DNA of 64,000 bases from a bacterium (GCA_021816845.1 JAKAWT010000002.1:213329-277328), one strand, 5' to 3'. Shown: positions 11,832-64,000, numbered from the stretch's first letter. Notes: a model not told the origin generated them from the sequence alone. Translations and numbers: made by a program.

Positions 11832-11858
11832 GGATTAGAATCCAAGGATCTTGATCCA
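11832..11858. repeat. GGATC-palindrome tandem repeat copy (GGATTAGAATCC aa GGATCTTGATCC)
   Basis: Member of the dispersed GGATCYRGATCC family; lies at the 5' boundary of the ABC-F ORF. Confidence 0.6.
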
Positions 11859-11919
11859 ACCTTGTGATTTTAACATATTTATAGAAGATAATTGTATTTT
11901 AATATATAATTGTGGAATT

Positions 11920-15479: not shown

Positions 15480-16208
15480 CTAACGTTTTTTGAAATTATT
15501 ATAGATATAGTTTTTAATTAATTTTTCTAAATCCATTATTTCATTATTTTTTAGGCATTTTTTTAAATCATCTAAAAAATCCTTATCATATCTCTTAATA
15601 TAGTAATCATGTTGAAATTTGTGATTATATAAAAATTTGTATCTTTTATCTTCATGTGAGAAAGGAATTTCTTCTCCATATATTTTACAATACATTGGAA
15701 GAATATTCCAATATATTATACTTATATACATACCTTTATAGTTAGGATTATCTTGGTAATATTTTTTCATAAGATTCATTTTTTTATATAGATACTTATA
15801 TTCTATCTCCTTAATCTCTCTTTTTACAAAATTTTCTTGTATATGCACACTACTTTTATCTTTCAAATCTTTAATAATATTTTTATTATCTTTAACTATT
15901 TCTCCTATATAGAACATTCTTGATGTCACTTTAGTATTACAATTATAATCTTTAGCAAATCGATCCTGAACACCTTTAGTAGTAGATATAAATAAATCTA
16001 TATTCAATTTTCGATTTTTAATATGAGTAAAAAAATTATATTTGTGATTATCTGTAATAATTATAATATCTATATCTGATCCTTTCGTATTTAATCCCAA
16101 AACATAGCTACCAGTAATAATATATCCAATCAATGGAAATATTTCATACTCAGATCCATTATTATTAATAAAATTTTCAATTTTTTTATAGGGAATATTC
16201 TTTTTCAA
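15480..16208 (-). CDS. Pol-beta-superfamily nucleotidyltransferase (KNTase/Lnu-like) with C-terminal helical domain
   Basis: GSYVLGLNTKGSDIDIIIIT = G[GS]-x9-13-DhD signature; 242 aa; extremely Lys/Asn/Ile/Tyr-rich. Confidence 0.55.
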   Translation of the reverse strand: MKKNIPYKKIENFINNNGSEYEIFPLIGYIITGSYVLGLNTKGSDIDIIIITDNHKYNFFTHIKNRKLNIDLFISTTKGVQDRFAKDYNCNTKVTSRMFYIGEIVKDNKNIIKDLKDKSSVHIQENFVKREIKEIEYKYLYKKMNLMKKYYQDNPNYKGMYISIIYWNILPMYCKIYGEEIPFSHEDKRYKFLYNHKFQHDYYIKRYDKDFLDDLKKCLKNNEIMDLEKLIKNYIYNNFKKR

Positions 16209-16214
16209 TATAAA

Positions 16215-17339: not shown

Positions 17340-17365
17340 AACATATATAAAAATATTCCCTAGAT

Positions 17366-19177
17366 TTATTGTATAGCAGTAGGTGTAGCAACTCCTGCAA
17401 TACTACCTAAGAAATTTGCGTCTCCAAATGTATATACTCCTCCATCTGCTGTTACCATATAATAACCTAACCCATCTATTGATAATTTAAATGCAACTGG
17501 TGTTCTTACTGGTGGATTTGTTATATTAAACATTGATCCATAGAATTGAGCATCTCCAAACGTATATACCCCTCCATCTGCTGTTACCATATAATACCCA
17601 TTCCCATCATTTGTTACAGCAAATGCTACCGTAGTCTTTACTGGGGCATTTGGTATATTATATGTAGATCCATGAAATTGAGCATCTCCAAATGTATATA
17701 CTGCTCCATTCTGAGTTACTATGTAATATCCACCCCCATCTGGTGTTACTCCAAATGCCACAGGTGTTTTATCAGGTATGGCTGATTGGGGTATGTTAAA
17801 TAACGATCCATGGAATACTGCATCTCCAAATGTATATACACCCCCATCTGCAGTAAGAACATAATATCCATTACCATCTGGAGTGGCCACAATAGCCACG
17901 GGAGTCTTCACTGGAGCGTTTGGAATATTATATACTGATCCATAGAATTGAGCATTTCCAAATGTATATATTCCCCCATCTGAAGTTAGAATGTAGTACC
18001 CAGTATCAGTTGGATTTTCAGCAAATCCCACACCTTGCTTCGAAGGTACACCATTAGGAATATTACTCATATCTCCATAATTATTAGTTCCAAAATTGTA
18101 TAAATTACCGGTTAAAGATAATATTGAATAACCATCACGTAATTGAGATACATATACAGCATTAGAGTATGAATAAGATGTTCCAATTGTGTTGTTACAT
18201 TGGGCAGAATCATATGTTCCACCTCCTAATATATATGCAATATTATTATATGTAGCAACACTCTCACCTGAAATTCCAACAAATGCACAAGTAGAATTTG
18301 ATTGAGAATAATAATTCCAAGTTCCTAATGTTCCATTAGAATTTATATTAGAATAAACCATTCCAGTATTTCCTCCTATGCCATAAATATATCCATTAAT
18401 AATGAAATAATTTGATGGGTATATCCAATCTGAATAACTATTACTTGGATAAAAATGGTTTGTAGAGTTCCATACACCTAATGTACCATTACTCTGTATT
18501 TGCGAGTAATATATACTTAATTGTGAAGGGATAGTCCCTGTATAAATATAATATATATCCCCATTATATGCTAAAGACACTGCATCATAATCATCTACAG
18601 GAAGAGAAGTAGTAGAGTTCCATACACCTAATGTACCATTACTCTGTATTTGAGAATAATATACTGTATTTAGATAATTGTAATTTAAAGTTCCATTTAT
18701 TTGATTGTATCCACCAAGTTTATATATATATCCACCATAAGCCGCTATACTAGGATTATTAATATTTTGTGAAATAGATGATGTGGAATTCCAAATACTA
18801 AGTGTACCATTACTTTGTATTTGCGAGTAATATACTGTATTTCCTAATAAATATATATATCCATTAGACTCAACAGCTAAATTACTAACATTATTGGGTA
18901 TAGAAGTAGTAGAATTCCAATTTCCCAAAGTATGATTGCTTTGTATTCGGGCATAGTAAACTGAGTTTACACTATTTGGCATTCCATTTATTAATATATT
19001 CCCTCCTACTTCGTAAATATACCCATTATAAGTTATAGAAGAAGAATTACTAATTTCTTGAGGTAGAGAAGTTGTATTTTTCCAATTTAGATAATGAGCA
19101 TAGGATCCATGTGAAAAAATAAAACCATAAATTAGTAATAAAGCAAAAGAAAAAAATATATTTTTTATAAATTTCAC
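17366..19177 (-). CDS. secreted beta-propeller-like repeat protein (Kelch-like N-terminal repeats plus 5 C-terminal GYYxLTxDGGVYTFGNAQF repeats)
   Basis: Signal peptide; repeated YYSQIQSNGTLGxWNSTTS blades; C-terminal 47-aa repeats paralogous to the 1..1271 protein. Confidence 0.6.
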   Translation of the reverse strand: MKFIKNIFFSFALLLIYGFIFSHGSYAHYLNWKNTTSLPQEISNSSSITYNGYIYEVGGNILINGMPNSVNSVYYARIQSNHTLGNWNSTTSIPNNVSNLAVESNGYIYLLGNTVYYSQIQSNGTLSIWNSTSSISQNINNPSIAAYGGYIYKLGGYNQINGTLNYNYLNTVYYSQIQSNGTLGVWNSTTSLPVDDYDAVSLAYNGDIYYIYTGTIPSQLSIYYSQIQSNGTLGVWNSTNHFYPSNSYSDWIYPSNYFIINGYIYGIGGNTGMVYSNINSNGTLGTWNYYSQSNSTCAFVGISGESVATYNNIAYILGGGTYDSAQCNNTIGTSYSYSNAVYVSQLRDGYSILSLTGNLYNFGTNNYGDMSNIPNGVPSKQGVGFAENPTDTGYYILTSDGGIYTFGNAQFYGSVYNIPNAPVKTPVAIVATPDGNGYYVLTADGGVYTFGDAVFHGSLFNIPQSAIPDKTPVAFGVTPDGGGYYIVTQNGAVYTFGDAQFHGSTYNIPNAPVKTTVAFAVTNDGNGYYMVTADGGVYTFGDAQFYGSMFNITNPPVRTPVAFKLSIDGLGYYMVTADGGVYTFGDANFLGSIAGVATPTAIQ

Positions 19178-19350
19178 TTAATTAATTACCAAAATAATTA
19201 TCTTAGATTCTACTCCTTACTTTTAAAAAAACAATATGAGTATATAAAAGATATATTGTATATAAATAAATTAAAACGATATTTTTATACTATAAAATTC
19301 AAATTATCCTAATTGTATTTTGCTGAATTAGTCTTCCTCATATACTATAA

Positions 19351-22104
19351 TTATACGAGTTTTCTTGAATTTAATCTCATATTTACCAACTGTAATAAAG
19401 AATTAATAACATCTCTTTTTATGCCTGATAAACCATAACATCTTAGTACTACGTCTTCAAATTCTATTCTATCTTTTTGAACTAATTCTTTAGTTATAGG
19501 AAAAACTTCTCTTTCTAATAATGGTTGAAATTTATTTAGTATTAAATTCTTTTGTCCATTTGATAAAAATAAAGGGTTTAAAATCATTAGATTCTTTTCT
19601 ATATTATCTTTATTCAAATCTAATACACTATCACCTCTTCCAAAACCTAAAGCTTCTATATAGAATATAGTCAAAAATGAATTCAATAAAGCATGGAGTA
19701 TATCTTTTTCAACATTTTGATGTTTCAGAGAAAATCCAATTAACCTTTGATTAATAAAAGAAGGATTATTCATTCTGGGAATAAAAATTCTTTCTGAAGG
19801 ATTCAAACTCATTGTAAAATCAGCTTTTTTATCCAAACTCATTGAATACCAAAATTTGTTACCTTTACCTAAAATCTGATTTAAAGGTTTTCCTTTTGTA
19901 TTGCTTAGATTTTCAAAAGATTTAATCCACTCTATAGCTCCGAAATGATTTAGTTTTTCTAAATCATTAATAGATAAAATACATGAAAATGCTCTTCCAT
20001 TAGCTTCTGTTGTAAGAGTCTTTACGGATTTTAAATTTTTTAAAAAAGGTTTGAGATATATTTTTTCTATATGATTATTTACTTCAGGATAAAATAATTT
20101 ATCCCATCCTCTTCTTTCTCCTCTATTAATGTCAAAAAATTGATTAACATTTATAACTTTATTCTCTAGTTTCATAACCCATGAGCAATCCGAGAATAAT
20201 CCATTACCACCAATACCATATTGACTTAAAATTTTTAAATCTTTATCTTTATAAGATTTCAAATATAATTCTTCATTATTTAAAAATTCATACTTATAAA
20301 TACTGCTAACAATATATTCAAAGTTATTTGATTTCTCTATATCGCCTTTTAATGTAACATATTTAGTCAAGTTTACATCTTTGTTTTTATTATTAATTTT
20401 TCTTAATATCATTATATTAGTTATAATTTTTACATCTTTAAACCATCTTCTAGAACCTGAAGTTATAACTATATCAATATGAAAGATTTTCCTTAAAGAA
20501 CTAATGAAATTCTTTCCCCATTTTGTTGATTGCCAAGAATTTGATATTATTAAACCTAAAACTCCATCTTTTGATAAGAATTTAACAAAATAAAAAGGTA
20601 AAAATGAATAGAAATCTCCTTTATTATTTAATTGTAAATCAATATTCAATTCTAATCTAATATATTCTCTTATTTCTTTTGCAATATTGGGATATAAAAT
20701 TGAATAAGTTTCTGATTTTATAAAAGGTAAATTTGAAACTACATAATCCATTAATGGCAAGCTAACTTTATAAATATCTCCAGAATAAGATTTATGAATA
20801 TTAATTAACATTCCCGCTTTGATATCAAGAACATCATCTTTGAATATATAAAATTTTTGTTCTTTATTCTCAGGATTAGCAATAGAAAAAGTAGCTAATT
20901 GTAAAGGAAATCCAAATTTATCACTTCCCCATGTAGATGAATAGATTTCTGATATCTTTAATTTATCATCTTCTTTTTTTAAATTAATAATCTCCCTTAG
21001 TATAGTTCCGGTACCACAACATGGGTCAATAACATTGGAATTTTTATTTCTTATAGTTAATTTAACTAAAAATTTTGATAAATATTGAGGTGTAGTAAAC
21101 TGACCTGCAATTTTTCTTTTACTTTTAATGACTAAATTATCTATCAATTCTTGAATAAAATCTTGAGTCATTTCTTGAATATTAGAATCTATTAATAAAT
21201 TATTGAATTCCAATATATTCTCCCAAAATTTATTAGGAATAATATCATCACCTAATTGTCTTACAAAAATATTCCAAAAATCTAATTTTTTAGATATATT
21301 TTCAAAGAATTCTAAAGAACACTTGATTTTATCAATAGTATTAAATTTATCTATTTCATTCGCGTTCATATTAAATTTCTTTATTAAATGTATGAATAGA
21401 AATTTGTTTATTACTGTTAAAAGATTTATTTTTGCAAGTACTATATATTTATCCTCTGTAGGGTATTCATACTGATTAGATTTCCACCAAATATTGATAT
21501 CATCACTAAATTCTGGATATTCATTACTTTTATCTTTAATATTATTAGAATAACTTTCTATATTGTTTTTTATTAAACTATCAATACCAAAAATAGATAT
21601 TGAATCAACTAGTGTTGTACTCTTAATACTTCCATTACTAAAATATATTACTAAATCTTCTAATATCTTATCTAATAAAATATAAATACTGTCTATTTGT
21701 TCAAAAACCTCTTCTCGTGTCTGAATTGTAGAAAGGTCTCTCCATTCTGATAAAATTTCTAAATCTTCATGATTATTAATAGTATATAACCTTGCATATT
21801 TAATATTCCATAATAAGAAACTCTTTAATCCTAAACTATCTGCTTTTTCTTTTGCATTTAAAATAAATTTTGAATCATTTATATCTGTATCAGGTAATTT
21901 GATTTCCCATCCTTGTAGATATGCTCCGGATGTTGAATCTGAATATAAAATTATGTCTGGGAAAAGTTTATTTTGATTTTGATTTGTAATTGTTATCTCA
22001 CCACCAGCTCTCTTTATAATTACATTCCTATTATTAGCCCAATTATTAATATATGAAATTAAATCAATACTTAAACTACGTTCATTTTCTTTAATATTTA
22101 TCAT
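19351..22104 (-). CDS. Type IIG restriction-modification enzyme (Eco57I/MmeI-like: N-terminal PD-ExK nuclease, central gamma-class N6-adenine methyltransferase, C-terminal TRD)
   Basis: N-terminal FPDIILYSD...GWEIK (D...ExK); MTase motif I DPCCGTGTIL followed by motif IV VVSNLPF (gamma order); 917 aa; 9 nt downstream of a separate MTase. Confidence 0.65.
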   Translation of the reverse strand: MINIKENERSLSIDLISYINNWANNRNVIIKRAGGEITITNQNQNKLFPDIILYSDSTSGAYLQGWEIKLPDTDINDSKFILNAKEKADSLGLKSFLLWNIKYARLYTINNHEDLEILSEWRDLSTIQTREEVFEQIDSIYILLDKILEDLVIYFSNGSIKSTTLVDSISIFGIDSLIKNNIESYSNNIKDKSNEYPEFSDDINIWWKSNQYEYPTEDKYIVLAKINLLTVINKFLFIHLIKKFNMNANEIDKFNTIDKIKCSLEFFENISKKLDFWNIFVRQLGDDIIPNKFWENILEFNNLLIDSNIQEMTQDFIQELIDNLVIKSKRKIAGQFTTPQYLSKFLVKLTIRNKNSNVIDPCCGTGTILREIINLKKEDDKLKISEIYSSTWGSDKFGFPLQLATFSIANPENKEQKFYIFKDDVLDIKAGMLINIHKSYSGDIYKVSLPLMDYVVSNLPFIKSETYSILYPNIAKEIREYIRLELNIDLQLNNKGDFYSFLPFYFVKFLSKDGVLGLIISNSWQSTKWGKNFISSLRKIFHIDIVITSGSRRWFKDVKIITNIMILRKINNKNKDVNLTKYVTLKGDIEKSNNFEYIVSSIYKYEFLNNEELYLKSYKDKDLKILSQYGIGGNGLFSDCSWVMKLENKVINVNQFFDINRGERRGWDKLFYPEVNNHIEKIYLKPFLKNLKSVKTLTTEANGRAFSCILSINDLEKLNHFGAIEWIKSFENLSNTKGKPLNQILGKGNKFWYSMSLDKKADFTMSLNPSERIFIPRMNNPSFINQRLIGFSLKHQNVEKDILHALLNSFLTIFYIEALGFGRGDSVLDLNKDNIEKNLMILNPLFLSNGQKNLILNKFQPLLEREVFPITKELVQKDRIEFEDVVLRCYGLSGIKRDVINSLLQLVNMRLNSRKLV

Positions 22105-22112
22105 TCTTAATT

Positions 22113-22919
22113 TTATAAATCAAAAGAATTAAAAAATCCTAGGCTTTTTTTTGCAGCTTCAATCCTTTTGATAGATATATCTATTAAATTTACTTTATTT
22201 TTTTTATGCAAAAGAGTATCTTCATTTTTTTCTATTCCTATAAAGTTTCTATTCTCTAATACAGCACTAACAAGAAAACTTCCACTACCAGAAGTATTAT
22301 CTAAAACAGTATCTCCTTCATTTGTATATGTTCTTATAATATATCTTCCTAATTCCACTGGTTTTTGAGTCGGATGATATACTTTTCCTTCACTTTCAGC
22401 TGTTTTAAAATATATAACATCGCTAGGATATCTTTGTCCATCACTTTGAATTTGTATAGAATTAAAATCCCCGTAACTCCCTGTTAATTGGTCTTTTCTA
22501 ACTCCTTTATCATATGGAACTCCTTCATTCATTTGAGGATTATAAATAGGTTGATTTTTATAGAATATGCAAATATCTTCATGTTTTCTTAACGGCTGTT
22601 TTTTTGCATTTAAAAAGTTTGTTGATTTTGATTTAACCCAAATCAGTTTATATTTAAACAGTTTTTTATTACTCATAATTAATTCTGCACTAAATGCTCC
22701 TTGAGAAGAAAGTGCTATAACTCCATTATCTTTAATTATCCGTTCATATTGTTCCCATAGTTTATCCAAAGGAATAACACTATCCCATATATTCTGTGTT
22801 GTACCATAAGGCAAATCACATAATATTAAATCAATAGACTTGCTATCAATGAAAGGTAAAACCTTTAAACAGTCATTTTCTATAACTTTATTTAAAAATT
22901 CTGTATTAAATTTAGACAT
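22113..22919 (-). CDS. DNA methyltransferase, beta-class (N6-adenine or N4-cytosine), companion to the Type IIG enzyme
   Basis: Motif IV LILCDLPYG preceding motif I DNTSGSGSF (beta-class order); 268 aa. Confidence 0.7.
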   Translation of the reverse strand: MSKFNTEFLNKVIENDCLKVLPFIDSKSIDLILCDLPYGTTQNIWDSVIPLDKLWEQYERIIKDNGVIALSSQGAFSAELIMSNKKLFKYKLIWVKSKSTNFLNAKKQPLRKHEDICIFYKNQPIYNPQMNEGVPYDKGVRKDQLTGSYGDFNSIQIQSDGQRYPSDVIYFKTAESEGKVYHPTQKPVELGRYIIRTYTNEGDTVLDNTSGSGSFLVSAVLENRNFIGIEKNEDTLLHKKNKVNLIDISIKRIEAAKKSLGFFNSFDL

Positions 22920-27864: not shown

Positions 27865-28392
27865 TTAATCAATAGTCTTTATTATACAATTTTTTAAGTA
27901 AATTGTAGAACCAGATACTTTTTCTATTATTCCCCTAACCATAAGGTGGTCATAACGATTCATTCTATTCAAAAAATTATACATATTCTTTTGTACTGAA
28001 AAACATACATAACAACTAAACTTGTCTAAAGATACAGTAAAAACATTTGACCTATCATTATCAAAAGTATCATCATTTAAACTAAACAATTTGACTTCCC
28101 ATGTAATTTTATAATCTATATATCCACTAGCAATAATTTTTTGGGCTGATAAAGGATGATTATCAATATCATTTATAATATCCCTAGGAGATTTTTTAGA
28201 TAAAGTAAATTTTTTAAATTTTTCTTTATTTGTAGTTATACTTCCATTGTTTTCAATTTGATTTTGATGCTGTATTTTATTATCTTTACTTCTATCTTTA
28301 CCTATGCCAAAACCATAATACAAGATTAAGCCTGCAATTACAGTACCTCCTATTCCTATAACCCATGGATTATTCATTAATATATTTATCAT
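27865..28392 (-). CDS. membrane-anchored hypothetical protein
   Basis: Real start placed at MINILMNNPWV (28392). The upstream part of ORF 27865..28707 is an artefact that reads through tRNA-Gln/Gly/Phe. Confidence 0.45.
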   Translation of the reverse strand: MINILMNNPWVIGIGGTVIAGLILYYGFGIGKDRSKDNKIQHQNQIENNGSITTNKEKFKKFTLSKKSPRDIINDIDNHPLSAQKIIASGYIDYKITWEVKLFSLNDDTFDNDRSNVFTVSLDKFSCYVCFSVQKNMYNFLNRMNRYDHLMVRGIIEKVSGSTIYLKNCIIKTID

Positions 28393-28413
28393 AGTAATAA
28401 AAATAATAAAGCA

Positions 28414-28484
28414 CTGGGATGCAGGGATTCGAACCCCAAACTTCAGGACCAAAACCTGGCGTGATGCCATTTCACCACATCCCA
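28414..28484 (-). tRNA. tRNA-Gln(TTG)
   Basis: Acceptor TGGGATG/CATCCCA, anticodon loop TTTTGGT, T-loop GGTTCGAATCC; no encoded CCA. Confidence 0.75.
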
Positions 28485-28493
28485 AAATAAATA

Positions 28494-28566
28494 AGCGGAA
28501 GACGGGGTTCAAACCCGCGACCTTATCCTTGGCAAGGATACGCTCTATCAACTGAGCTACTTCCGC
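28494..28566 (-). tRNA. tRNA-Gly(GCC)
   Basis: Acceptor GCGGAAG/CTTCCGC, anticodon stem TATCC/GGATA with loop TTGCCAA, T-loop GGTTTGAACCC. Confidence 0.8.
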
Positions 28567-28571
28567 AGATA

Positions 28572-28644
28572 TGCCACAGGTGGGGCTCGGACCCACGACA
28601 CAAGGCTCTTCAGGCCTCTGCTCTACCAGCTGAGCTACCGTGGC
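28572..28644 (-). tRNA. tRNA-Phe(GAA)
   Basis: Acceptor GCCACGG/CTGTGGC, D-arm AGCTCAGCTGGTAGAGC, anticodon loop CTGAAGA. Confidence 0.8.
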
Positions 28645-28709
28645 ATAAAACATTAAGAGTATACCAAATTTTTTTAATATTGAAAATTTATTTAATGGAG
28701 AAAACACAT

Positions 28710-28782
28710 TGGGTGGTACAGGGATCGGACCTGTGACATCTACGGTGTAAACGTAGCGCTCTACCAGCTGAGCTAACCACCC
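28710..28782 (-). tRNA. tRNA-Val(TAC)
   Basis: Acceptor GGGTGGT/ACCACCC, anticodon stem CTACG/CGTAG with loop TTTACAC. Confidence 0.8.
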
Positions 28783-28797
28783 AAATTAAATCTACAA

Positions 28798-28886
28798 TGG
28801 GCAGAAGAGGACTTGAACCTCCATGCCACTAAATAAGGGGCACAACCACCTCAAGGTTGCGTGTCTACCGATTCCACCATCTGCCC
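28798..28886 (-). tRNA. tRNA-Leu(GAG)
   Basis: Acceptor GGGCAGA/TCTGCCC, long variable arm, anticodon stem CAACC/GGTTG with loop TTGAGGT. Confidence 0.75.
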
Positions 28887-28947
28887 AAAATCTATATTAA
28901 AGACACAGGCATATTATATTTAAAAAAAACAAATTTTGCAATGAATT

Positions 28948-29029
28948 TGCCAGAGAGAGGACTTGAACCTCCAAATCTTTCGATACAGCGTTCTGAACAC
29001 TGCGTGTATACCAATTTCACCACTCTGGC
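28948..29029 (-). tRNA. tRNA-Leu(CAG)
   Basis: Acceptor GCCAGAG/CTCTGGC, long variable arm, anticodon stem CAGTG/CGCTG with loop TTCAGAA. Confidence 0.7.
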
Positions 29030-29030
29030 A

Positions 29031-37282: not shown

Positions 37283-38265
37283 TGCATGAATATAGAATTT
37301 CAAATAAGGAAGAGATAGAAGAATTACAGAAAGAATTTAAATCCAATTTTCTCCAGACTACATATTGGGCTGAATTTAAAAATTGGGATACTCACTACCT
37401 AGTTTTTGAAGACAATTCTAAAGTATATGGATATTGTGTTTTATTAATAGAGAAAAAATACTTTTTTAAATTAGCATATGTGCCACGAGGACCAATTTTA
37501 AATGATTATTCAAAGATTCTAGATTCTAAGTTTAAAAGTGCTATATCAAGTATTGAGGATTTTGCAAAAACACAACACGTGTCACTTTTAAAAATAGAAC
37601 CAGACCACTCTGATATTAACCATCAAGATGGCAACCATCCAGATGGCAACATCAACTACTCTGATATATTCAAAGGGTATATCAAGGTTAATGATTTCAT
37701 ACAACCAGTACAAACTGCTGTATTAGATGTAGGAGATAGAGATTTTATGATAAAAAATATATCTTCAAAATATAGAGGAAGAATAAGGAATAAATTTAAT
37801 TTAGAATTAAAAACTATTGATGATATAGACAAATTTTTTAAAGTTTATTCAGACACAGCAAATATAAAACACTTTAAACAAAGAAATATAGAATATTTTA
37901 AGAATATGAAATTTTATTTTAAAGATCATATAAAAATCTTTGGGGTCTATTACAATAATATCCTAATAGCAGCATCTTTTAATATATTATGGCAAGATAC
38001 ATTGACTTATCTTTATTCTGGATCAGATAAAAAGTATAACAACATGTATCCAGGATATTTTCTTGTTTTTGAGTCATCATTATCTATGAAAAATAATGGT
38101 ATAAAAATTACAGACTTATGGGGAGTTAGCGATGATAATACTAAATGGCAAGGATTTTCAGAATTCAAGAAAAATATCGGAGGTAGAGTTATTGATTTCC
38201 CAGGAAGTTTTGATTTACCATTAAACAAATTATATTATTCTATATATAAATTGATCAAAAGGTAG
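37282..38265 (+). CDS. FemAB-family peptidoglycan bridge-forming aminoacyltransferase
   Basis: FLQTTYWAEFK, YVPRGP, LTYLYSGS, MYPGYFLVFES, DLWGVSDD...W.GFS.FK motifs; paralogous to the convergent neighbour. Confidence 0.7.
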   Translation: MHEYRISNKEEIEELQKEFKSNFLQTTYWAEFKNWDTHYLVFEDNSKVYGYCVLLIEKKYFFKLAYVPRGPILNDYSKILDSKFKSAISSIEDFAKTQHVSLLKIEPDHSDINHQDGNHPDGNINYSDIFKGYIKVNDFIQPVQTAVLDVGDRDFMIKNISSKYRGRIRNKFNLELKTIDDIDKFFKVYSDTANIKHFKQRNIEYFKNMKFYFKDHIKIFGVYYNNILIAASFNILWQDTLTYLYSGSDKKYNNMYPGYFLVFESSLSMKNNGIKITDLWGVSDDNTKWQGFSEFKKNIGGRVIDFPGSFDLPLNKLYYSIYKLIKR

Positions 38266-41866: not shown

Positions 41867-41907
41867 GGATCTAGATCCTCGGATCTAAATCCTAGGATCC
41901 AGATCCT
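41867..41907. repeat. GGATC-palindrome tandem repeat (GGATCTAGATCC tc GGATCTAAATCC ta GGATCCAGATCC)
   Basis: Three 14-bp units in the lepB-PBP intergenic region. Confidence 0.7.
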
Positions 41908-41947
41908 TTTGTATAATATAACAAATGTTAATATTATTCAATTAATA

Positions 41948-44183: not shown

Positions 44184-44738
44184 CTAAATAGAAATGCCAT
44201 CCTTGGGCCTAGACTCATTAGGTTTAGATCCCCTGGACCTAGACCCCCTGGATTTAGATCCTGTATATTCTAACTTCAACCTTAAATCATTCACAAACCA
44301 TTTTTTTCCATTAGCCACTTTTTTAAAAAGACTACTATAGAGATTTTTATTAGGAATTAATAATACTTTAAGTTTAGATCTAGTATCTAGATAGTCTACC
44401 AGACAATAAAAATCTCCATCCCCTGTAACTATTATTGCTTGATCATAGTTAGCTATTTCAATCATCGTTTGTAAAACTAGTTCTGCATCACAGTTTCCTT
44501 TAACTGTACCTTGTCTTGTGAGTGTAGGTTTGAAAATAATGATATAACCCATTTTCTGCAAAGCAGTATACATAGATTGATTTTCATCAATAAAACCAAT
44601 AAATAAAAAACATTTAGTAGCTGAATATTTGTTTTCTAAATATTTTTTGAATTTCTCAAAATCTAATATCCATCCCTGATCTCTCACGGCTAAATTTAAA
44701 TTTTGACTATCTATAAATGCGTAATTGTTATTTTCCAT
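44184..44738 (-). CDS. NYN-domain (LabA/PIN-like) protein with repeat-encoded Ser/Arg/Lys-rich C-terminal tail
   Basis: NYAFIDSQNL, CFLFIGF, AIIVTGDGDFYCLVDYL: the NYN/LabA pattern; C-terminal GSKSRGSRSRGSKPNE is encoded by a GGATC-repeat locus. Confidence 0.65.
   Translation of the reverse strand: MENNNYAFIDSQNLNLAVRDQGWILDFEKFKKYLENKYSATKCFLFIGFIDENQSMYTALQKMGYIIIFKPTLTRQGTVKGNCDAELVLQTMIEIANYDQAIIVTGDGDFYCLVDYLDTRSKLKVLLIPNKNLYSSLFKKVANGKKWFVNDLRLKLEYTGSKSRGSRSRGSKPNESRPKDGISI
44200..44263. repeat. GGATC-palindrome tandem repeat, degenerate (GGCCTAGACTC.. GGTTTAGATCC cct GGACCTAGACCC cct GGATTTAGATCC)
   Basis: 15-bp periodic units encoding the NYN protein C-terminal tail. Confidence 0.65.
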
Positions 44739-49943: not shown

Positions 49944-50849
49944 ATGAAGATGAGAAATACTATCCTTATAGTCATACTGATTGTTCTTATAGCAATTTTG
50001 GTATATTCTTTGTATTCTGCTTTTTTCTACAAAAATCACCAACTTCAAAACATATCTACCATATCCAAAAATCTAACAAGCTGTAATAATGGATCTAGAT
50101 CCAATGGATCAAGATCCATTGATTGGATGATAACTTATCAGAATATTAAAAATTTATCTAAAATAAATAAAACTATTGTAAATAGTATTTTTGACTCTCA
50201 AAATACTTATATAATGGAGTCACCATTAAAGTTTCAATATAATCCTTATGGAACATTTGTTGCCGTTTTTCAAAGTTATCAAACATTTAAAACAGACTTA
50301 TTAAATCATACTATTAATCCTCACTTTAAGTGGGTTTTATATGATAATGAACATTGGTCAAAAACTCCAGTTGTCGAGCAACAGAATCCAGTTTTATATG
50401 AGGAACTATTCACTAATCTTGCACATCAATATGGATACAAAGTAATTTTATCTCCCTCTCAAGATTTGTTTATAGAATCAAAAAATAATTTCAATGGGAA
50501 TTTATATCTAAATTCTGGTATTGTTAAATCAACTTATAATTATGCTGATATATATGAAGTACAAGCTCAATCATTCGAACAGTCAAGATATAGAAGTAAT
50601 AATGTATTTACAACTTTTGTAGATAATGTTCTTAAACAGATACCAAATCATACGAAACCTATCATTGTAGGACTTGGTACAAGTAGAGTTCAGAATTCCA
50701 CTCAACTCTACAATGATTTTTTAAGCGTTATGGGATCTGTACAAGGATTTTGGTTGAACATTCCAGGATCAACAGCCAAGAGACTTAATATAGGGATACA
50801 ATTCTTACAAATGGTTGGATCCAGATCCTTTGAGAATTCGTGTAAATAA
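49944..50849 (+). CDS. membrane-anchored extracytoplasmic hypothetical protein with in-frame GSRSNGSRS repeat insertion
   Basis: N-terminal TM; the GGATC-repeat locus at 50091-50120 is translated in-frame as NGSRSNGSRS; a second repeat copy lies at the 3' end (MVGSRSFE). Confidence 0.45.
   Translation: MKMRNTILIVILIVLIAILVYSLYSAFFYKNHQLQNISTISKNLTSCNNGSRSNGSRSIDWMITYQNIKNLSKINKTIVNSIFDSQNTYIMESPLKFQYNPYGTFVAVFQSYQTFKTDLLNHTINPHFKWVLYDNEHWSKTPVVEQQNPVLYEELFTNLAHQYGYKVILSPSQDLFIESKNNFNGNLYLNSGIVKSTYNYADIYEVQAQSFEQSRYRSNNVFTTFVDNVLKQIPNHTKPIIVGLGTSRVQNSTQLYNDFLSVMGSVQGFWLNIPGSTAKRLNIGIQFLQMVGSRSFENSCK
50091..50120. repeat. GGATC-palindrome tandem repeat (GGATCTAGATCC aat GGATCAAGATCC)
   Basis: Two 15-bp units, in-frame inside CDS 49944..50849; an extra single unit GGATCCAGATCC lies at 50817..50828. 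Confidence 0.7.
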
Positions 50850-53590: not shown

Positions 53591-53606
53591 ATTATAATTT
53601 CAAATT

Positions 53607-53680
53607 TGACCTCGGCGGGATTCGAACCCGCGATTTCCAGGATGAAAACCTGATGTCCTAGACCACTAGACGACGAGGCC
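53607..53680 (-). tRNA. tRNA-Glu(TTC)
   Basis: Acceptor GGCCTCG/CGAGGTC, D-arm GTCTAGTGGTCTAGGAC, anticodon stem TCAGG/CCTGG with loop TTTTCAT. Confidence 0.75.
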
Positions 53681-53798
53681 AAAAACAATAAAAATATACC
53701 AGAAATAAGGGTTTTTTGCAAATACAATGTTCAGTAATTTGAGTTTTGGAAATTTTTAGTATACAATGAGCTAGGGATGTGCCCAACCTATGCAGCCT

Positions 53799-53843
53799 TG
53801 GATCCGGATCCTTGAATCCAGATTATTAGATCTAGATCTTTGG
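53799..53843. repeat. GGATC-palindrome tandem repeat (GGATCCGGATCC tt GAATCCAGATTATTAGATCTAGATCTTTGG)
   Basis: Intergenic, between tRNA-Glu and the AI-2E transporter gene. Confidence 0.6.
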
Positions 53844-57473: not shown

Positions 57474-57527
57474 AGGATTAAAATCCAAAGATCTTGATCC
57501 GGGGATCTTGATCCGGGGATCTAGGTA
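57474..57527. repeat. GGATC-palindrome tandem repeat (GGATTAAAATCC aaa GATCTTGATCC ggg GATCTTGATCC ggg GATCTAGG)
   Basis: 14-bp period, intergenic between the secreted-protein gene and the surface-protein gene. Confidence 0.65.
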
Positions 57528-57593: not shown

Positions 57594-60170
57594 TTAGAGC
57601 ATCATCAATCCAACTCCTATTGCTATTATCAATCCTCCTACTGCAGCAAACATTTCTATTGGTGATGTTCCTGCTGTTTGTGGAAGTTGCTGTACTGTTG
57701 GAGTTACAACTGCTGGAACACAATCTCCTGATACTGATGATGTTGTCATCACATTTGTCTTTGCTCCTCCAGCATTTACTAACCATCCAGATACTTGGTA
57801 ACTATCTTTACCATTAGATCCTTGCCATATATATGCACCTAGGTTAGCATCTGTATTTGGTATTGTTGCTACCTCTGTTCCTGTTGTAGTATCTAATATT
57901 ATTCCTGTAAACATCTCTCCACTTGGTACATTAGTTGCTTTCCAATTTATCAACAAATCATTTGTAGTATTGTTCTGACATGCTAATGATATAGATGTCA
58001 TTGCCGGACTTACAGGTGCCTGACATGATGTTACATTCTCACTTGATGATGTAACAACGCTACTTTTACCATTAGTACCCTCTATGTACCCGGATACTGT
58101 GTAGTTATCAGTTGTGTTTGCTCCTGTCCATGTGTAAGTACCTAATGATGCTGGTACATTAAAGGTTGCTACTTGTGTATTTGTTGTTGTATCTTCTATT
58201 GTCCCATAAAATGTATCACCACTTACTAAGCTTGAAGCTGTATCTTGCCATTGTATAGCCATATTAACTGATGATTGTACACATGCTAGTGACACAGATA
58301 TAATTACTGGAGGATGTTGTACACAGTTATAAAAACTTACAGCACTCGATGTAGCAGTATTTCCACCCTGTACACTCATTGTTGCAGAATAGTTATCATT
58401 GCTATTTTCTAATGACTGTACAAATGAATTGTATACTCCTGTAGATGTATTTTGTGTTGGTATTGACAATGCCTCTGTACCTGTAGTCATGTTCGTAATA
58501 TATCCTGTTATCGCATCTTGTGAGACGTAGTTTGTTGTACTCCATGATACTCCTTGACAATTTAGTGAAACTGTTATTACAGGTGGTTGTGTATGTGTCA
58601 CACAGTTATAAAAATTAAATTCACTTGATGTGGAACTATTGCCTCCTGCAACTGACATAGTTACAGTATAATTATCATGACTATTAGTTAGAGCTGATAC
58701 AAATGAATTCACTGTTCCTGTAGATACATTCTCTGTTGGAATTGTAGCTACTTTCTGATTTGTTGTTGTATCTTCTACATATCCTGTTATTGCATCTTGT
58801 GAGACGTAGTTTGTTGTTGTCCATGATGCCCCCTGACAATCCAGAGTCACAGCTATTGTTGGAGCTTTTGTATGTGTTACACAGTTATAGAAATTAAATG
58901 ATCCAGATGTTGCACTATTTCCATTCTGTACTGACATCATAACTTCATAATTATCACTACTATTTGTCAGAGATGATACAAATGAGTTGACTGTACCAGA
59001 TGCTGAAGTTTCTGTTGGGAATGTATAAACATTCTGACCTGTAGTCATATCCTCTACATATCCTGTTATTGCATCTGTGGATACGTAGTTTGTTGTACTC
59101 CATGTTGCCCCCTCACAATTTAGTGTTACTGATATTGTAGGTGGTTGTGTATGTGTCACACAGTTATAAAAATTAAACTGTGGAGAATAGTTGCTTCCAA
59201 TAGGACCACTAGGTGAATATATATTCATTAAAAAGTCATATGTGTCATTTGTTTGTGTAGCTCCAGATACGAATGAATTTACTGTACCAGATGCTGTAGC
59301 TTGTGTAGGAACTGTTAATATAGTTTTACCAGTTGTCACATCAGTAACATAACCTGCAACTGTGTCTCCAGATTGAAAATTAGTTGTTGTCCATGATGCT
59401 CCTTGACAATTCAGCGAAACTTTTATTGTAGGTGTAACTGGTGCTGGAGGTGTTACTGTTATAGTCTCCGTTACTAGCTCACCATTCTGTACCTGAACTG
59501 TTACATTATTACCGCTTACAGACCACCCAGATGGTAATCCAGATAAGGCATAACTTACAGGTGAAAAATTACAATCAATTATCTCATAATATTTAATATC
59601 ACTTTCACTAACAGTTCCAGATGAAACATTATTAGTTCTTGTAATATTACCGTGTAGTGAGCTACATAAACCAAATCCAGTTGATGGACATGAAAATACT
59701 GTCCCACTACCCTGGGTTTGACCTACACTTACTGTTGGCATAACTTGATATGTTGTTGGTGGTGTATCATTGTGGTTCTTGTAATAACCCATTATGTCTG
59801 CAGGTCCTATGTATGAACCAGGATTAATCTGTGGAGATTGTACTAATGGATCTTGTAATGCACCATTATAACCAGAATCCCATACAAACCCATTATCATA
59901 ACCATCTGTACATTGAGCTGTATGCATAGATAGATTCAAATTTGGTAACGCTACTTGCGAGCTAGATGTCTTAATATCAATTTGTATTGATGCATTGTGT
60001 GTAGCAGAATATGTAGTCAAATTACTTGGTAATTGACAATTAGGTGCAGCACTAACTACTACTGGCTTACCTAAATTACCCATAGCTAAAAATGCTATAA
60101 AAGATATATTTAACAGTATAAATACAGATATAACTAAATGTATTTTCTTGAAATGTAACTTATTAAACAT
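57594..60170 (-). CDS. LPxTG-type sortase-anchored surface protein with about 5 tandem Ig-like repeats of roughly 97 aa
   Basis: Signal peptide; repeats NFYNCVTHTQPP.I.V.L.C.G.SW.TTNYVS.DAITGY......; C-terminal LPQTAG plus hydrophobic helix plus short tail = sorting signal. Confidence 0.7.
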   Translation of the reverse strand: MFNKLHFKKIHLVISVFILLNISFIAFLAMGNLGKPVVVSAAPNCQLPSNLTTYSATHNASIQIDIKTSSSQVALPNLNLSMHTAQCTDGYDNGFVWDSGYNGALQDPLVQSPQINPGSYIGPADIMGYYKNHNDTPPTTYQVMPTVSVGQTQGSGTVFSCPSTGFGLCSSLHGNITRTNNVSSGTVSESDIKYYEIIDCNFSPVSYALSGLPSGWSVSGNNVTVQVQNGELVTETITVTPPAPVTPTIKVSLNCQGASWTTTNFQSGDTVAGYVTDVTTGKTILTVPTQATASGTVNSFVSGATQTNDTYDFLMNIYSPSGPIGSNYSPQFNFYNCVTHTQPPTISVTLNCEGATWSTTNYVSTDAITGYVEDMTTGQNVYTFPTETSASGTVNSFVSSLTNSSDNYEVMMSVQNGNSATSGSFNFYNCVTHTKAPTIAVTLDCQGASWTTTNYVSQDAITGYVEDTTTNQKVATIPTENVSTGTVNSFVSALTNSHDNYTVTMSVAGGNSSTSSEFNFYNCVTHTQPPVITVSLNCQGVSWSTTNYVSQDAITGYITNMTTGTEALSIPTQNTSTGVYNSFVQSLENSNDNYSATMSVQGGNTATSSAVSFYNCVQHPPVIISVSLACVQSSVNMAIQWQDTASSLVSGDTFYGTIEDTTTNTQVATFNVPASLGTYTWTGANTTDNYTVSGYIEGTNGKSSVVTSSSENVTSCQAPVSPAMTSISLACQNNTTNDLLINWKATNVPSGEMFTGIILDTTTGTEVATIPNTDANLGAYIWQGSNGKDSYQVSGWLVNAGGAKTNVMTTSSVSGDCVPAVVTPTVQQLPQTAGTSPIEMFAAVGGLIIAIGVGLMML
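58000..59500 (-). repeat. about 290-bp tandem DNA repeats inside the surface-protein gene
   Basis: Near-identical blocks, e.g. ggtggttgtgtatgtgtcacacagttataaaaattaaa around 58575, 58870 and 59140. Confidence 0.7.
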
Positions 60171-60912: not shown

Positions 60913-62397
60913 ATGCTTGACCATTTTATAAAAAAAGGGAAAAAATACGGATATCTTAAAGACAATCATTGGCTAGAAAGCTCAAGTGGTGAGGTGATGC
61001 TATCAATATCCCCTATTAATAATGAGATAGTAGGTTATATGCAAAAAATGACAACAAGTGAAGTAGATGAAACTATCAAGTCATCAAAATTAGCATTCTC
61101 AAGTTGGAAAAATCAACCAATGAACATAAGAGTTCAAATATTAAAGAAAGCATCTAGAATTATATTTGATAACACAGCTCTAATAACAGCTTTGATTATT
61201 AAGGAAATTGCAAAACCATATAATGAGGCACTAGATGAAGTAATAAGGACTGCAGATTTAATATCATTTTATGCGGATGAGGGTTCTAGAATGATTGGAG
61301 AGGTTCTAACTTCAGATCTTTTTCCTAGATACACGAAATCAAAAACAGCAATTGTAGAAAGAGTACCTTTAGGTGTCATTTTATCTATACCTCCGTTTAA
61401 CTACCCTTTTAATGAATCTGCCCCTAAAATAGTTGGTGCGATAATATCTGGAAATACAGTTGTATTAAAACCACCATCTCAAGGGGGAATTACAGCATTA
61501 CTTCTTGGTGAAATATTTAAACTTGCAGGGTTACCTGATGGAGTTTTAAATATAATAACAGGGGATAGCTCGGTAATTGGAGATTTTGCAGTATCACATA
61601 CTGATATAGCAGGGATAAATTTTACAGGTAGTACTAAAACTGCTTTGCATATACAAAAAACCTTAGAAAAAGGAAATAGACTATTACCATTATTACTTAT
61701 GGGACTAGGAGGAAAAGATGCAGCTATTGTACTTGAAGATTCAGATATAAAAAATGCTGCATTAAATATAGCAGATGGAGCATTCACATATTCGGGTCAA
61801 AGATGTACTGCAATAAAAAGAGTATTGTTACAAGATACTATTGCAGATTTATTTTTAAGAGAATTAAAAAATATAGTTTTAAAAAAGTATATATTAGGTA
61901 ATCCCAATGACAAAAGTATAAATATGGGTCCTGTGATTAATGACAAACAGGCAGAGTATATTGAATCTCTTGTTAATGATGCAATCTCGAAAAAAGCTGT
62001 AGTTATATGTGGAGGACAAAGAAGTGGCAGATATATAGAAGCAACTATCCTCGATCATGTCAGCCTTGATTCAAAGCTTGCCTGGGAAGAGCCTTTTGGT
62101 CCAGTACTACCTATAATAAGAGTAAAAAATGTTACAGATGCAATAGATATAGCTAATAAATCAGAATATGGACTACAGAGTAGTGTCTTTACAAGTAATA
62201 TTGATACTGCGTTTGAAGTAGCAGAAAAATTAGAAGTTGGGGTTGTACAAATAAATGGTAAAGATTCAAGAGGTCCAGACAATTTTCCTTTCAACGGTGT
62301 TAAAAATTCCGGATATGGTAATATACAAGGTGCAAAGTATTTAATAGAATCTCTAACGAAACTAAAAACAACTGTAGTAAATAAAATTAATGTTTGA
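60913..62397 (+). CDS. aldehyde dehydrogenase family protein (GapN-like candidate)
   Basis: ALDH motifs: catalytic FTYSGQRCTA, EEPFGPV, glycine-rich GSTKTA; 494 aa. Confidence 0.75.
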   Translation: MLDHFIKKGKKYGYLKDNHWLESSSGEVMLSISPINNEIVGYMQKMTTSEVDETIKSSKLAFSSWKNQPMNIRVQILKKASRIIFDNTALITALIIKEIAKPYNEALDEVIRTADLISFYADEGSRMIGEVLTSDLFPRYTKSKTAIVERVPLGVILSIPPFNYPFNESAPKIVGAIISGNTVVLKPPSQGGITALLLGEIFKLAGLPDGVLNIITGDSSVIGDFAVSHTDIAGINFTGSTKTALHIQKTLEKGNRLLPLLLMGLGGKDAAIVLEDSDIKNAALNIADGAFTYSGQRCTAIKRVLLQDTIADLFLRELKNIVLKKYILGNPNDKSINMGPVINDKQAEYIESLVNDAISKKAVVICGGQRSGRYIEATILDHVSLDSKLAWEEPFGPVLPIIRVKNVTDAIDIANKSEYGLQSSVFTSNIDTAFEVAEKLEVGVVQINGKDSRGPDNFPFNGVKNSGYGNIQGAKYLIESLTKLKTTVVNKINV

Positions 62398-63805
62398 AAA
62401 TTCTATCCCTATAGATCTCAAAAGTAAATTATTCTTAAAAGCAATCCCCTATTCTTGTGGTTGTTATATTTTCACTGGATTTGGATCCAAGGGATCTGGA
62501 TCCAAGGGATCTGGATCCAAAGATAAAGTCTTATACATAGGAAAAGCCAAGAATTTAAGAAAAAGAGTAAGTCAGTATTTCAATATAGGAAATTTACCGA
62601 TAAAAACTCAAAAAATGCTTTCTCTGTCTAAATCTATAACATATATAGAAACAGACAACGAAGCCGAAGCTTTAATATTAGAGAGTAACCTAATAAAAAA
62701 ATATAGACCTAAATATAATATTCTTTTAAAAGATGATAAACAGTATGCCTGGGTAAAAATAACAAATGATGAATTTCCAAAGATTGAGAGAGTTAGAGAA
62801 AAAAAGAATGATAAGGCAACCTATTTTGGACCATATCCAAACGCCTACACTACAATCAAAGTTTTATCAAATCTAAGAAAGATTTTCCCATATAGAACAT
62901 GTAATCTAAAAATTCATGAAAGATCTTCTAGAGATGGAGAAATAACAAAACCCTTGGTACTAGTACCCAGGGTATGTATTTATTATCATATAGGACTTTG
63001 TACTGGACCTTGTGATAACTTACAGTCCAGAGAAGATTATATGAAGAATATAAATAACATAAAGAAGTTTTTTAAAAGTAAGAAACATCAAATTATAAAA
63101 GATTATGAAAAAGAAATGATAAAAGCATCAAAAGAAGAAAGATTTGAAGATGCAATAAAGCTAAGAGACAAGATAGAAGATATTAGGTATGTTACACAGA
63201 ACATAAAAGTAAATTTTGAAGATCCAGATGATCCAGAGAATAGAACATATACAAATAGAAAAAAAGAGAACATAGAAGCTTTAAAAAAGCTATTTTTAAA
63301 ACTCCATATTAAATATAACAATGGAAGGGTAGAATGCTACGATATATCTAATATACAAGGAAAATATCCTGTATCATCAATGGTTGTTTTCAAAGATGGA
63401 GAGATGTCAAAATCTAACTATAGAAAATTCAAAATTAAATCGGATGATACACCAAATGACCCGTTAATGATGTATGAAACACTAACTAGAAGACTCAAAG
63501 AGTCTAGAATCACTAATAAACCTAAAGATGTAAGTTTTAGTGAGGTTCCAGACTTAATTGTTGTAGATGGGGGTAAAACTCAAGTTAGTGCAGGAGCTAG
63601 AGCTTTAGAAGATTTAGGATTAACTATTCCACTTATTGGACTTGCAAAAAGATATGAAGAAATTTACCTACCTAATATAAAAGAGCCTATACGGTTAAAA
63701 CAAAATGACAAATCTTTATTGGTATTAAGACAAATTAGAGATGAAGCACATAGGTTCGCAATAACATTTCACAGACAAATACGATCGAAAGGAATGTATT
63801 CCTAA
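62390..63805 (+). CDS. uvrC: excinuclease ABC subunit C-like protein lacking the C-terminal HhH domain
   Basis: N-terminal GIY-YIG (CGCYIF...LYIGKAKNLRKRVSQYF, E...LE..LIKKYRPKYN), UVR motif (RFEDAIKLRDKIEDIRYV), RNase H-like endonuclease domain (GRVECYDISN, VVDGGKTQV, IGLAKRYEEIY, RDEAHRFAI); ends at 471 aa without the HhH tail; a repeat-encoded GSKGSGSKGSGSK insertion sits in the GIY-YIG loop. Confidence 0.7.
   Translation: MFENSIPIDLKSKLFLKAIPYSCGCYIFTGFGSKGSGSKGSGSKDKVLYIGKAKNLRKRVSQYFNIGNLPIKTQKMLSLSKSITYIETDNEAEALILESNLIKKYRPKYNILLKDDKQYAWVKITNDEFPKIERVREKKNDKATYFGPYPNAYTTIKVLSNLRKIFPYRTCNLKIHERSSRDGEITKPLVLVPRVCIYYHIGLCTGPCDNLQSREDYMKNINNIKKFFKSKKHQIIKDYEKEMIKASKEERFEDAIKLRDKIEDIRYVTQNIKVNFEDPDDPENRTYTNRKKENIEALKKLFLKLHIKYNNGRVECYDISNIQGKYPVSSMVVFKDGEMSKSNYRKFKIKSDDTPNDPLMMYETLTRRLKESRITNKPKDVSFSEVPDLIVVDGGKTQVSAGARALEDLGLTIPLIGLAKRYEEIYLPNIKEPIRLKQNDKSLLVLRQIRDEAHRFAITFHRQIRSKGMYS
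62478..62519. repeat. GGATC-palindrome tandem repeat (GGATTTGGATCC aag GGATCTGGATCC aag GGATCTGGATCC)
   Basis: Three 15-bp units translated in-frame within the uvrC-like gene. Confidence 0.7.
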
Positions 63806-64000
63806 GAATGTGTTCTTCAATAGGATAGGATTACACATTTGATAATATATAATATATATTATAAGGGGTAACCAGCTATAGAAACAGATATATGAAAAAT
63901 TCTAAGTATGTAGATATTGTCAATTAAGATAATGGAGAATACTTAAATATGTGTGTTATATGAATCCTTCTTAACCAATAAATCATATAGAAGAATAGAG

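Follow-up and report, generated by a model that had tools for sequence, protein, structure and literature searches.

A probably functional Patescibacteria uvrC of reduced architecture with in-frame palindromic inserts

Canonical UvrC proteins such as those of Escherichia coli, Thermotoga maritima and Deinococcus radiodurans (approximately 600-617 aa) contain a GIY-YIG nuclease domain, a Cys-rich motif, a UVR hairpin and an RNase H-like nuclease with a DDH triad, together with a central inactive RNase H1-like domain (PF22920) and a tandem helix-hairpin-helix region, (HhH)2. In D. radiodurans the RNase H1 domain is a conserved platform at the centre of the protein and packs onto the active site of GIY-YIG (PMC10085695). 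Removal of (HhH)2 from the same protein left UvrB binding and both cuts in place, with 3' incision kept and 5' incision partly impaired (PMC10085695), and engineered truncations of this kind (UvrC-Delta(HhH)2, UvrC554) are known from that study and from the earlier E. coli work that it cites. Cho is likewise a shortened UvrC relative that works with UvrB and lacks the whole RNase H half. Here we describe a uvrC gene at positions 62390..63805 (+ strand) of a 64,000-nt stretch of bacterial DNA (GCA_021816845.1 JAKAWT010000002.1:213329-277328; the whole of this stretch is referred to as the window). This is probably a functional and selectively maintained Patescibacteria uvrC, reduced in architecture and carrying four palindromic in-frame inserts that derive from a lineage-restricted repeat family. 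Compared with canonical UvrC the window protein retains the four shared elements, lacks PF22920 and (HhH)2 (as do other Patescibacteria), separates its two catalytic tyrosines by 22 residues instead of 10 and has a first Cys spacer of X24. The form differs from the engineered truncations in being natural and phylum-wide and in having also lost RNase H1, and it is known here from sequence; unlike Cho, it retains the RNase H half. As DNA, the inserts appear by analogy to behave most like the Rickettsia palindromic elements (RPEs), which are likewise dispersed palindromic sequences of a reduced genome found in frame in unrelated metabolic and repair genes, where they are translated and apparently tolerated at the protein surface (PMC10969869).

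The identity of the gene, originally predicted to be UvrC-like, is now well established. Its open reading frame (ORF) encodes 471 aa, and the start ATG shares 8 nt with the stop of an upstream aldehyde dehydrogenase gene. The N-terminal part of the protein contains CGCYIFTGFGSKGSGSKGSGSKDKVLYIGKA and the C-terminus reads RDEAHRFAITFHRQIRSKGMYS before the stop. The NCBIfam uvrC equivalog model TIGR00194 scored 379.8 bits (cutoff 285.45) and the Cho model NF007833 reached 51.6 bits (cutoff 367); with the former above its cutoff and the latter far below, this is a bona fide uvrC and not Cho, an identity also rejected because the RNase H domain is retained. Pfam matched GIY-YIG at residues 44-110 (beginning at profile position 11), UVR at 235-266 and UvrC RNase H at 305-458, and a beta-sheet and Cys-rich region lies between the first two. 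The GIY-YIG 3'-incision nuclease domain (62447..62719, +; approximately aa 20-110) was delimited by Pfam, alignment and fold match to 1YD6, and its residues Y26, Y49, K52, R59, Y63, E98 and N110 align with T. maritima Y19, Y29, K32, R39, Y43, E76 and N88. The UVR motif, the UvrB-binding helical hairpin (63092..63187, +; PF02151, 31.1 bits), also weakly matches the C-terminus of UvrB models. The RNase H-like 5'-incision nuclease domain (63302..63763, +; PF08459, 170 bits) carries the DDH triad D318, D393 and H454, and these three residues and the GIY-YIG catalytic residues do not vary in a 72-sequence homologue alignment. In an AlphaFold2 model (mean pLDDT 85.3) the GIY-YIG domain superposed on 1YD6 with a TM score of 0.84-0.91 (rmsd 1.8 A) and the RNase H-like domain on 2NRR and 3C65 with 0.85-0.87. 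The host appears to be a Patescibacteria bacterium with a tiny genome whose nearest named relatives are Dojkabacteria.

The first of the four inserts is a lineage-specific tract of 45 nt (62474..62518, +), identified by DNA alignment with loci L005 (the sister genome) and L006 and encoding TGFGSKGSGSKGSGS. Tandem Repeats Finder reported 62477-62520 with a period of 15, 2.9 copies, 96% matches and the consensus GGATCTGGATCCAAG. Each of its three 15-nt units is a 12-nt palindrome, GGAT(T/C)TGGATCC, followed by a spacer codon (AAG, AAG and AAA), so that the tract GGA TTT GGA TCC AAG / GGA TCT GGA TCC AAG / GGA TCT GGA TCC AAA is read as GFGSK GSGSK GSGSK. The original prediction had already derived this stretch from three repeat units, which holds; its count of 13 residues has to be revised to 15, the period of 15 nt including the spacer codons. 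At the same site the relatives have TTT AAA GAT AAA GAC AAT AAA GTT and the window has TTC [45 nt] AAA GAT AAA GTC. The window allele thus combines a 45-nt insertion with the loss of an adjoining 9 nt between ATAAAG direct repeats, which leaves it 36 nt (12 aa) longer. Four close relatives (P0002, the sister protein, and P0121, P0122 and P0123; 87-89% identity) lack the insert and read CGCYIF-KDKDN-KVLYIGKA, the canonical hairpin spacing being encoded by the non-repetitive AAAGATAAAGACAAT. The Tyr-Tyr spacing was exactly 10 residues in 117 of the 118 homologues with an intact N-terminus, and no close relative had a loop of the length seen here. The insertion is real, unique to the window lineage and probably tolerated.

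The position of the insert within the fold was examined by alignment and modelling. In phmmer comparisons with 1YD6 (B. caldotenax) and 1YCZ (T. maritima) the window protein aligned only from residue 44-45; when the 15 inserted residues were deleted in silico the alignments reached beta1, 1YD6 then scoring 85 bits instead of 67 and 1YCZ 60 bits instead of 46. AlphaFold2 placed beta1 at 24-30 and beta2 at 46-53, both with confidence, and between them a loop at 31-45 with pLDDT below 50 at 36-42. Taken together, these alignments and strand positions put the insert at the tip of the hairpin bearing both catalytic tyrosines, which it is predicted to prolong, in agreement with its earlier placement between the two catalytic beta strands. 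The inserted loop itself is predicted to be disordered and to leave both active sites intact.

The other three inserts are also specific to this lineage and are absent from all four close relatives. A 12-nt insert, AGATCTTCTAGA (62921..62932, +), encodes RSSR, and a 15-nt single-unit insert, CTTGGTACTAGTACC (62953..62967, +), contains the palindrome GGTAC-TA-GTACC and encodes LVLVP; both lie between Cys171 and Cys196. The remaining 15-nt insert, TCAAAGAGTCTAGAA (63495..63509, +), completes a palindrome AGACTC-AAA-GAGTCT (63491-63505), adds KESRI and falls in a loop of the RNase H domain. The Cys-rich motif has all its ligands (C171-X24-C196-X3-H200-X3-C204-X3-C208). Its first spacer is X15 in the relatives, and the X24 of the window protein results from the two palindromic inserts AGATCTTCTAGA and CTTGGTACTAGTACC.

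An obvious alternative is that the insert cripples the GIY-YIG 3' nuclease, and that the gene is an early pseudogene or is kept for its RNase H-like 5' nuclease or some other role. The near-universal spacing of 10 residues implies constraint, the Pfam GIY-YIG score falls from 48.9 to 37.3 bits with beta1 lost from the match, three more insertions have entered the gene, the FeS motif included, and genes of nucleotide excision repair (NER) do get lost in reduced genomes. Against this, all catalytic residues are intact and all four inserts are in frame and free of stops. Between the window and the sister genome uvrC shows a dN/dS of 0.078 at a dS of 0.875 over 445 codons. The window protein is as similar to ten outgroup UvrCs as is its insert-free sister (for example 0.619 versus 0.621), and its unique changes at positions that do not vary in the other eleven sequences fall solely at insert boundaries; neither dN/dS nor the outgroup comparison gave any sign of rate acceleration or decay. 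The insert also sits at a hairpin tip in a loop modelled as disordered, and the same repeats occur inside essential genes (Mur ligase, MurA-like), not all of which can be dying. We therefore regard a crippled nuclease as unlikely. Several points nevertheless weigh against the functional gene that we favour. The spacing of 10 residues, unvarying in all other homologues examined, argues for a real structural constraint that is violated here, and the first FeS Cys-Cys spacing of X24 is beyond the X6-14 of the published consensus, CX6-14CX3(H/Q)X3CX3C (PMC10085695). AlphaFold cannot judge whether a floppy 15-residue loop disturbs docking of DNA or UvrB, and dN/dS and the rate test average over a whole branch and so cannot demonstrate activity after a possibly recent insertion. 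Finally, uvrA and uvrB were not located within the 74 kb of this genome that was covered.

Support for a repeat-derived insertion, as first proposed, came from the finding of the same palindromic unit family scattered over the genome. The sequence GGATYTGGATCC, allowing at most one mismatch, was counted 17 times in the window where 0.42 occurrences were expected, and none of 100 shuffles reached 17. The shared element is a 12-nt 5-2-5 palindrome, G-NNN-C NN G-NNN-C, which is found alone or as tandem units set 2 or 3 nt apart. The stems of the arrays include GGATC, GCATC, GGGTC, GGACC, GAACC, GTATC, GTTAC, GGTAC and CCATC, the arms being complementary within each unit. When an array was counted only if it had two or more perfect palindromes in succession, repeating every 14 or 15 nt, 73.8 kb of this genome contained 8 and 19.3 kb of the sister genome 4; the syntenic loci of three clade members further removed (UvrC 53-62% identical) contained none, and control loci totalling 1.29 Mb contained 2, an enrichment over the controls of approximately 70-fold or more. 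The family is restricted to the window genome and its sister. Inside genes the period is 15 without exception; between genes it is 14 or, in a few arrays, 15. Genic units of the GGATC type are always read GGA-TCN-NGA-TCC (Gly-Ser-x-Ser), giving small flexible residues. In-frame palindromic insertions are carried by uvrC and by the Mur ligase, MurA-like, NYN and FemAB genes, and comparison with the sister revealed filled versus empty (or shorter) sites in the Mur ligase gene, a 283-aa gene, the MurA-like gene and intergenic spacers. Between the two genomes there are 14 indels of 9-120 nt whose flanks align well, and 13 of them carry a palindrome whose stem is 5 bp or longer; the family accounts for most mid-size indels between the sisters.

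In the window, intergenic arrays of period 14 lie at 11832..11859 (GGATTAGAATCC AA GGATCTTGATCC AA), at 41867..41908 (three GGATC-type units; -22.8 kcal/mol, z -4.7), at 53800..53839 (three units; the ortholog in a relative has the same length and changed stems) and at 57475..57516 (two units, or 28 nt, more than in a relative). In-frame arrays of period 15 are found at 37620..37646 (+) in a FemAB-family gene (stem CCATC-NN-GATGG), at 44225..44261 (-), where three units near the C-terminus of an NYN-domain protein encode GSKSR GSRSR GSK, and at 50088..50118 (+) in ORF 49944..50849, where two units encode NGSRS NGSRS; a single palindrome unit lies at 50817-50828 of the same ORF. Members of the family also occur at 15990-17360, 19342-19371, 19867-19893 and 21151-21195 of L001, the locus of this genome that runs past the window end, and at 2243, 4040, 5057, 16327, 17779, 18496, 19113 and 19168 of the sister locus L005. 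A Mur ligase (Mpl/MurC-like) is encoded at L001 15830-17548 (-), approximately 5.4-7.1 kb past the window end. The protein is 572 aa long here, 487 aa in the sister and 459 aa in relatives further away; several in-frame Gly/Ser-rich palindromic arrays (for example TGSSGSGSSGSGSAGFGP versus TGSGSAG) and a C-terminal extension make up the difference. Beside the array at 53800..53839, and between it and a tRNA-Glu gene (53606-53681, -), is a non-coding stretch (53682-53799) that is approximately 95-100% identical to the sister genome, where proteins are approximately 80-90% identical; it probably holds divergent promoters, a small RNA or a leader upstream of an AI-2E transporter gene.

Considered as DNA, an array of three units is palindromic over its whole length and folds into a single composite hairpin, that of uvrC at -23.6 kcal/mol (z -2.7). 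Two of four arrays tested folded better than shuffles and the other two no better, and single 12-nt units were rejected as stable hairpins because a 2-nt loop is too small. Since GGATCC-rich short palindromes look like synthetic linkers and metagenome-assembled genomes (MAGs) may hold chimeras, the tract might be an assembly or amplification artefact arising from linker-like GGATCC or fold-back chimeras. This is scarcely credible, as four assemblies, two NCBI MAGs and two independent Logan runs, carry the identical uvrC insert allele, genic arrays are always in frame and many arrays have stems other than GGATC. Moreover, orthologous arrays in a different species carry substitutions and paired stem changes that preserve arm complementarity: at 53814 GAATC..GATTa stands opposite GAGCC..GGCTC, and in the MurA-like gene GGACC..GGTCC stands opposite GAACC..GGTTC.

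It could also be argued that the Gly/Ser/Lys loop is adaptive, either as a flexible tether to DNA, containing lysines, that makes up in part for the absent (HhH)2 or as a length-variable module that tunes activity. Three lysines have indeed been added beside a DNA-binding nuclease in a protein without the usual DNA-binding tail, and tandem 15-nt units could in principle grow or shrink in frame. The relatives, however, equally lack HhH and have no such loop, and equivalent arrays in unrelated genes and intergenic DNA make a gene-specific function unnecessary. The suggestion that the length of the insertion might differ between strains was not borne out, the copy number being the same in 4 of 4 assemblies; across ten arrays no copy-number variation was seen wherever they were covered (1-4 assemblies each, uvrC in four, possibly representing one population). 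An adaptive role for the loop is accordingly very unlikely in our judgement.

The uvrC loop is supported as one instance of a lineage-specific process that inserts palindromic mini-arrays. Selection would then retain those copies that preserve the frame, contain no stop and lie in a benign frame, and these would be translated. In the uvrC insert the GGATCNNGATCC palindrome is read in the only one of its frames giving small, flexible and hydrophilic residues. That the arrays are translated is indicated by the strict period-15, stop-free pattern of the genic copies, which excision at the level of RNA or protein would make needless. The origin of the arrays may lie in template switching or slippage promoted by hairpins, or in a copy-paste process. 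Uniform geometry, variable stems, paired changes and expansion by whole units fit hairpin-promoted template switching and slippage, and the predominance of GGATC (at least 9 loci) and the presence of GCATC at three loci in two genomes fit copy-paste spread. A transposase was rejected as the driver, there being none within the 64 kb. The window also encodes, at 19351-22919 (-), a 917-aa protein with an N6_Mtase domain, matching a type IIG/IIL restriction-modification fusion in size, adjoining a 268-aa N6_N4 DNA methyltransferase, a pair that is likely to be a restriction-modification module. A link between GGATC and this pair or a restriction system was considered and dropped: approximately 52 GGATC and 58 GATCC would be expected, 64 and 69 are present and GATC falls slightly short of expectation, and as GGATC is neither globally enriched nor avoided to any marked degree the restriction-modification explanation is unsupported.

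Among described repeat families, RPEs provide the closest parallel, the present arrays being dispersed palindromic repeats that interrupt unrelated conserved genes without shifting the frame and whose sites are empty in relatives. RPEs are approximately 100-150 bp long and have conserved family sequences, whereas the present units are of 12 nt with a period of 14 or 15, are often in tandem and vary in their stems while keeping the 5-2-5 geometry. The features of RPEs and miniature inverted-repeat transposable elements (a length of approximately 100-400 bp, conserved sequence, terminal inverted repeats and target-site duplication) are missing, and no consistent target-site duplication was seen at the inserts (units of 12 nt, inserts of 12-60 nt). 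Repetitive extragenic palindromes (REPs), with their BIME and REPIN arrangements, are likewise short, dispersed, lineage-specific and hairpin-forming, and are often clustered in alternating orientation (PMC3116915, PMC3733652). They are of 20-40 bp, extragenic, tagged with GTAG/CGTC and linked to RAYT, whereas approximately half of the arrays described here are intragenic, carry no GTAG/CGTC or other conserved tag and have no transposase within the 64 kb. HIP1 is a single over-represented palindromic word (PMC4390886), while the signal here is tandem 5-2-5 geometry and not word frequency. The PARCELs are likewise intragenic tandem repeats with DNA dyad symmetry in minimal-genome bacteria (PMC2996958), but their units encode a 25-residue amphipathic motif in ORFs of surface or unknown function, in contrast to 5-residue units in conserved enzymes and in intergenic DNA. 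No paper describing these palindrome arrays was found in the literature searched, and among 241 million metagenome records scanned for arrays of three GGATC units there were 13 matches, all unrelated single tandem repeats on contigs of 50-71% GC. We tentatively suggest, as a possibility that falls short of even chances, that this lineage hosts a new class of ultra-small palindromic insertion element, or a mutational process, that makes and spreads 5-2-5 palindromes in 14/15-nt arrays, keeps their palindromy through paired changes, dominates mid-size indels and inflates essential proteins in frame, to the point of altering the otherwise invariant length of the UvrC catalytic hairpin.

The second departure from canonical UvrC is at the C-terminus. 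As first noted, the ORF ends directly after the RNase H-like domain, six residues past its last helix (FHRQIR), and the Pfam scan found no HhH domain in the protein. All 12 of the nearest homologues (429-471 aa) end 5-8 residues past the FHRxxR helix. Among the 115 top matches in which this motif was found, 41 have tails of at most 25 aa and 74 have tails of 58-75 aa; the missing canonical tail, some 58-63 aa counted from the helix, is therefore approximately 60 aa and not the 100 or so given originally. A GTDB scan with degenerate patterns (relatives at most 43% identical among the matches listed; the loci doubled as the palindrome controls) sampled 15 Patescibacteria genomes, including Dojkabacteria, Minisyncoccia, Shapirobacteria, Moraniibacteriota, Paceibacteria, Saccharibacteria and others, and in all 15 the uvrC frame stops within approximately 15 residues of the last RNase H helix. 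A further loss had been overlooked: the PF22920 domain (approximately 115 aa) is absent from the window protein and from every Patescibacteria-like homologue, and is present in P0106, a 610-aa Firmicutes UvrC. The Patescibacteria UvrC homologues (P0002-P0105; loci L009-L024) are natural minimal proteins of approximately 400-470 aa without HhH and RNase H1. The absence of HhH is the standard Patescibacteria architecture, ordinary for the lineage, with no truncation event in this gene. From the D. radiodurans Delta(HhH)2 result a UvrC without the tail would be expected to function, the 5' cut probably being weaker, and we infer by this analogy that the window enzyme may still make both incisions with UvrB, the 5' incision being the weaker. 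No paper combining the Candidate Phyla Radiation with UvrC and NER, or dealing with UvrC architecture in that group, was found in the literature searched.

Whether a separate ORF might supply the tail was also considered. The uvrC stop is followed by an AT-rich spacer of 137 nt with no continuing frame (63806..63942) and then by the 3' end of a convergent VKOR-family gene (63943..64000, -; L001 11554..11991) that runs off the window; this order, with a DUF929 gene next, is kept in three relatives. In a more distant clade member an extra 267-aa ORF (L091 11347-12150, +) lies between uvrC and the VKOR gene, and it has no HhH and no significant Pfam match (best DUF3810, E 0.024). This downstream synteny excludes an adjacent split HhH ORF, a possibility that the original prediction had proposed to examine. 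A protein encoded elsewhere in the genome could supply the HhH function in trans, as the halves of D. radiodurans UvrC are able to work in trans (PMC10085695) and the search reached 74 kb of the genome only. We consider such a distant split gene highly improbable, since the loss is common to the 15 Patescibacteria genomes with no nearby candidate, and a hidden Markov model of the 74 UvrC tails, which detected the tail in 12 of 12 canonical UvrC ORFs, gave no match (best E 0.27) in six frames of those 74 kb or in the relatives' loci.

Several other features of the region were recorded. An 858-aa Thr/Ser/Asn-rich protein (57594-60170, -) has no Pfam domain, a C-terminal hydrophobic anchor and tandem modules of approximately 93 aa (279 nt), each with conserved Cys residues (tandem repeat 58474-59177). 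Its length among relatives is 670, 711, 765, 856 or 937 aa, and this wide variation suggests that it is probably a variable surface protein. A 603-aa protein (17366-19177, -) gives faint RCC1/WD40-like matches and contains 4.3 copies of a 132-nt repeat (17421-17988). Six tRNA genes (Gln, Gly, Phe, Val, Leu, Leu) are clustered at 28413-29030 (-), and the mechanically listed ORF 27865..28707, which overlaps four of them, is probably spurious. At L001 13830-15527 (approximately 3.8-5.5 kb past the window end) are two toxin-antitoxin-like pairs (one BrnT/CopG-like, the other a PIN gene with an 85-aa partner) and a 100-aa ORF; all of these are inserted between the epimerase and Mur ligase genes and are absent at that site in L005.

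The RNase H1 platform was reportedly found in a 2023 study to be highly conserved and central to UvrC, and a recent proposal is said to hold that it auto-inhibits the 3' nuclease. Patescibacteria supply natural minimal UvrC proteins of approximately 400-470 aa with neither this platform nor the (HhH)2 anchor, and through this natural loss models of UvrC activation become directly testable on a natural protein. The window gene further indicates that the GIY-YIG hairpin, length-invariant elsewhere, can bear a flexible extension of 12 residues without visible gene decay. The repeat family behind the insertion is the most interesting result. Its arrays resemble miniature RPEs, filtered by frame, restricted to a lineage and the source of most mid-size indels between sister genomes, and they may offer a tractable case of selfish or mutational repeat DNA lengthening the proteins of a reduced genome.

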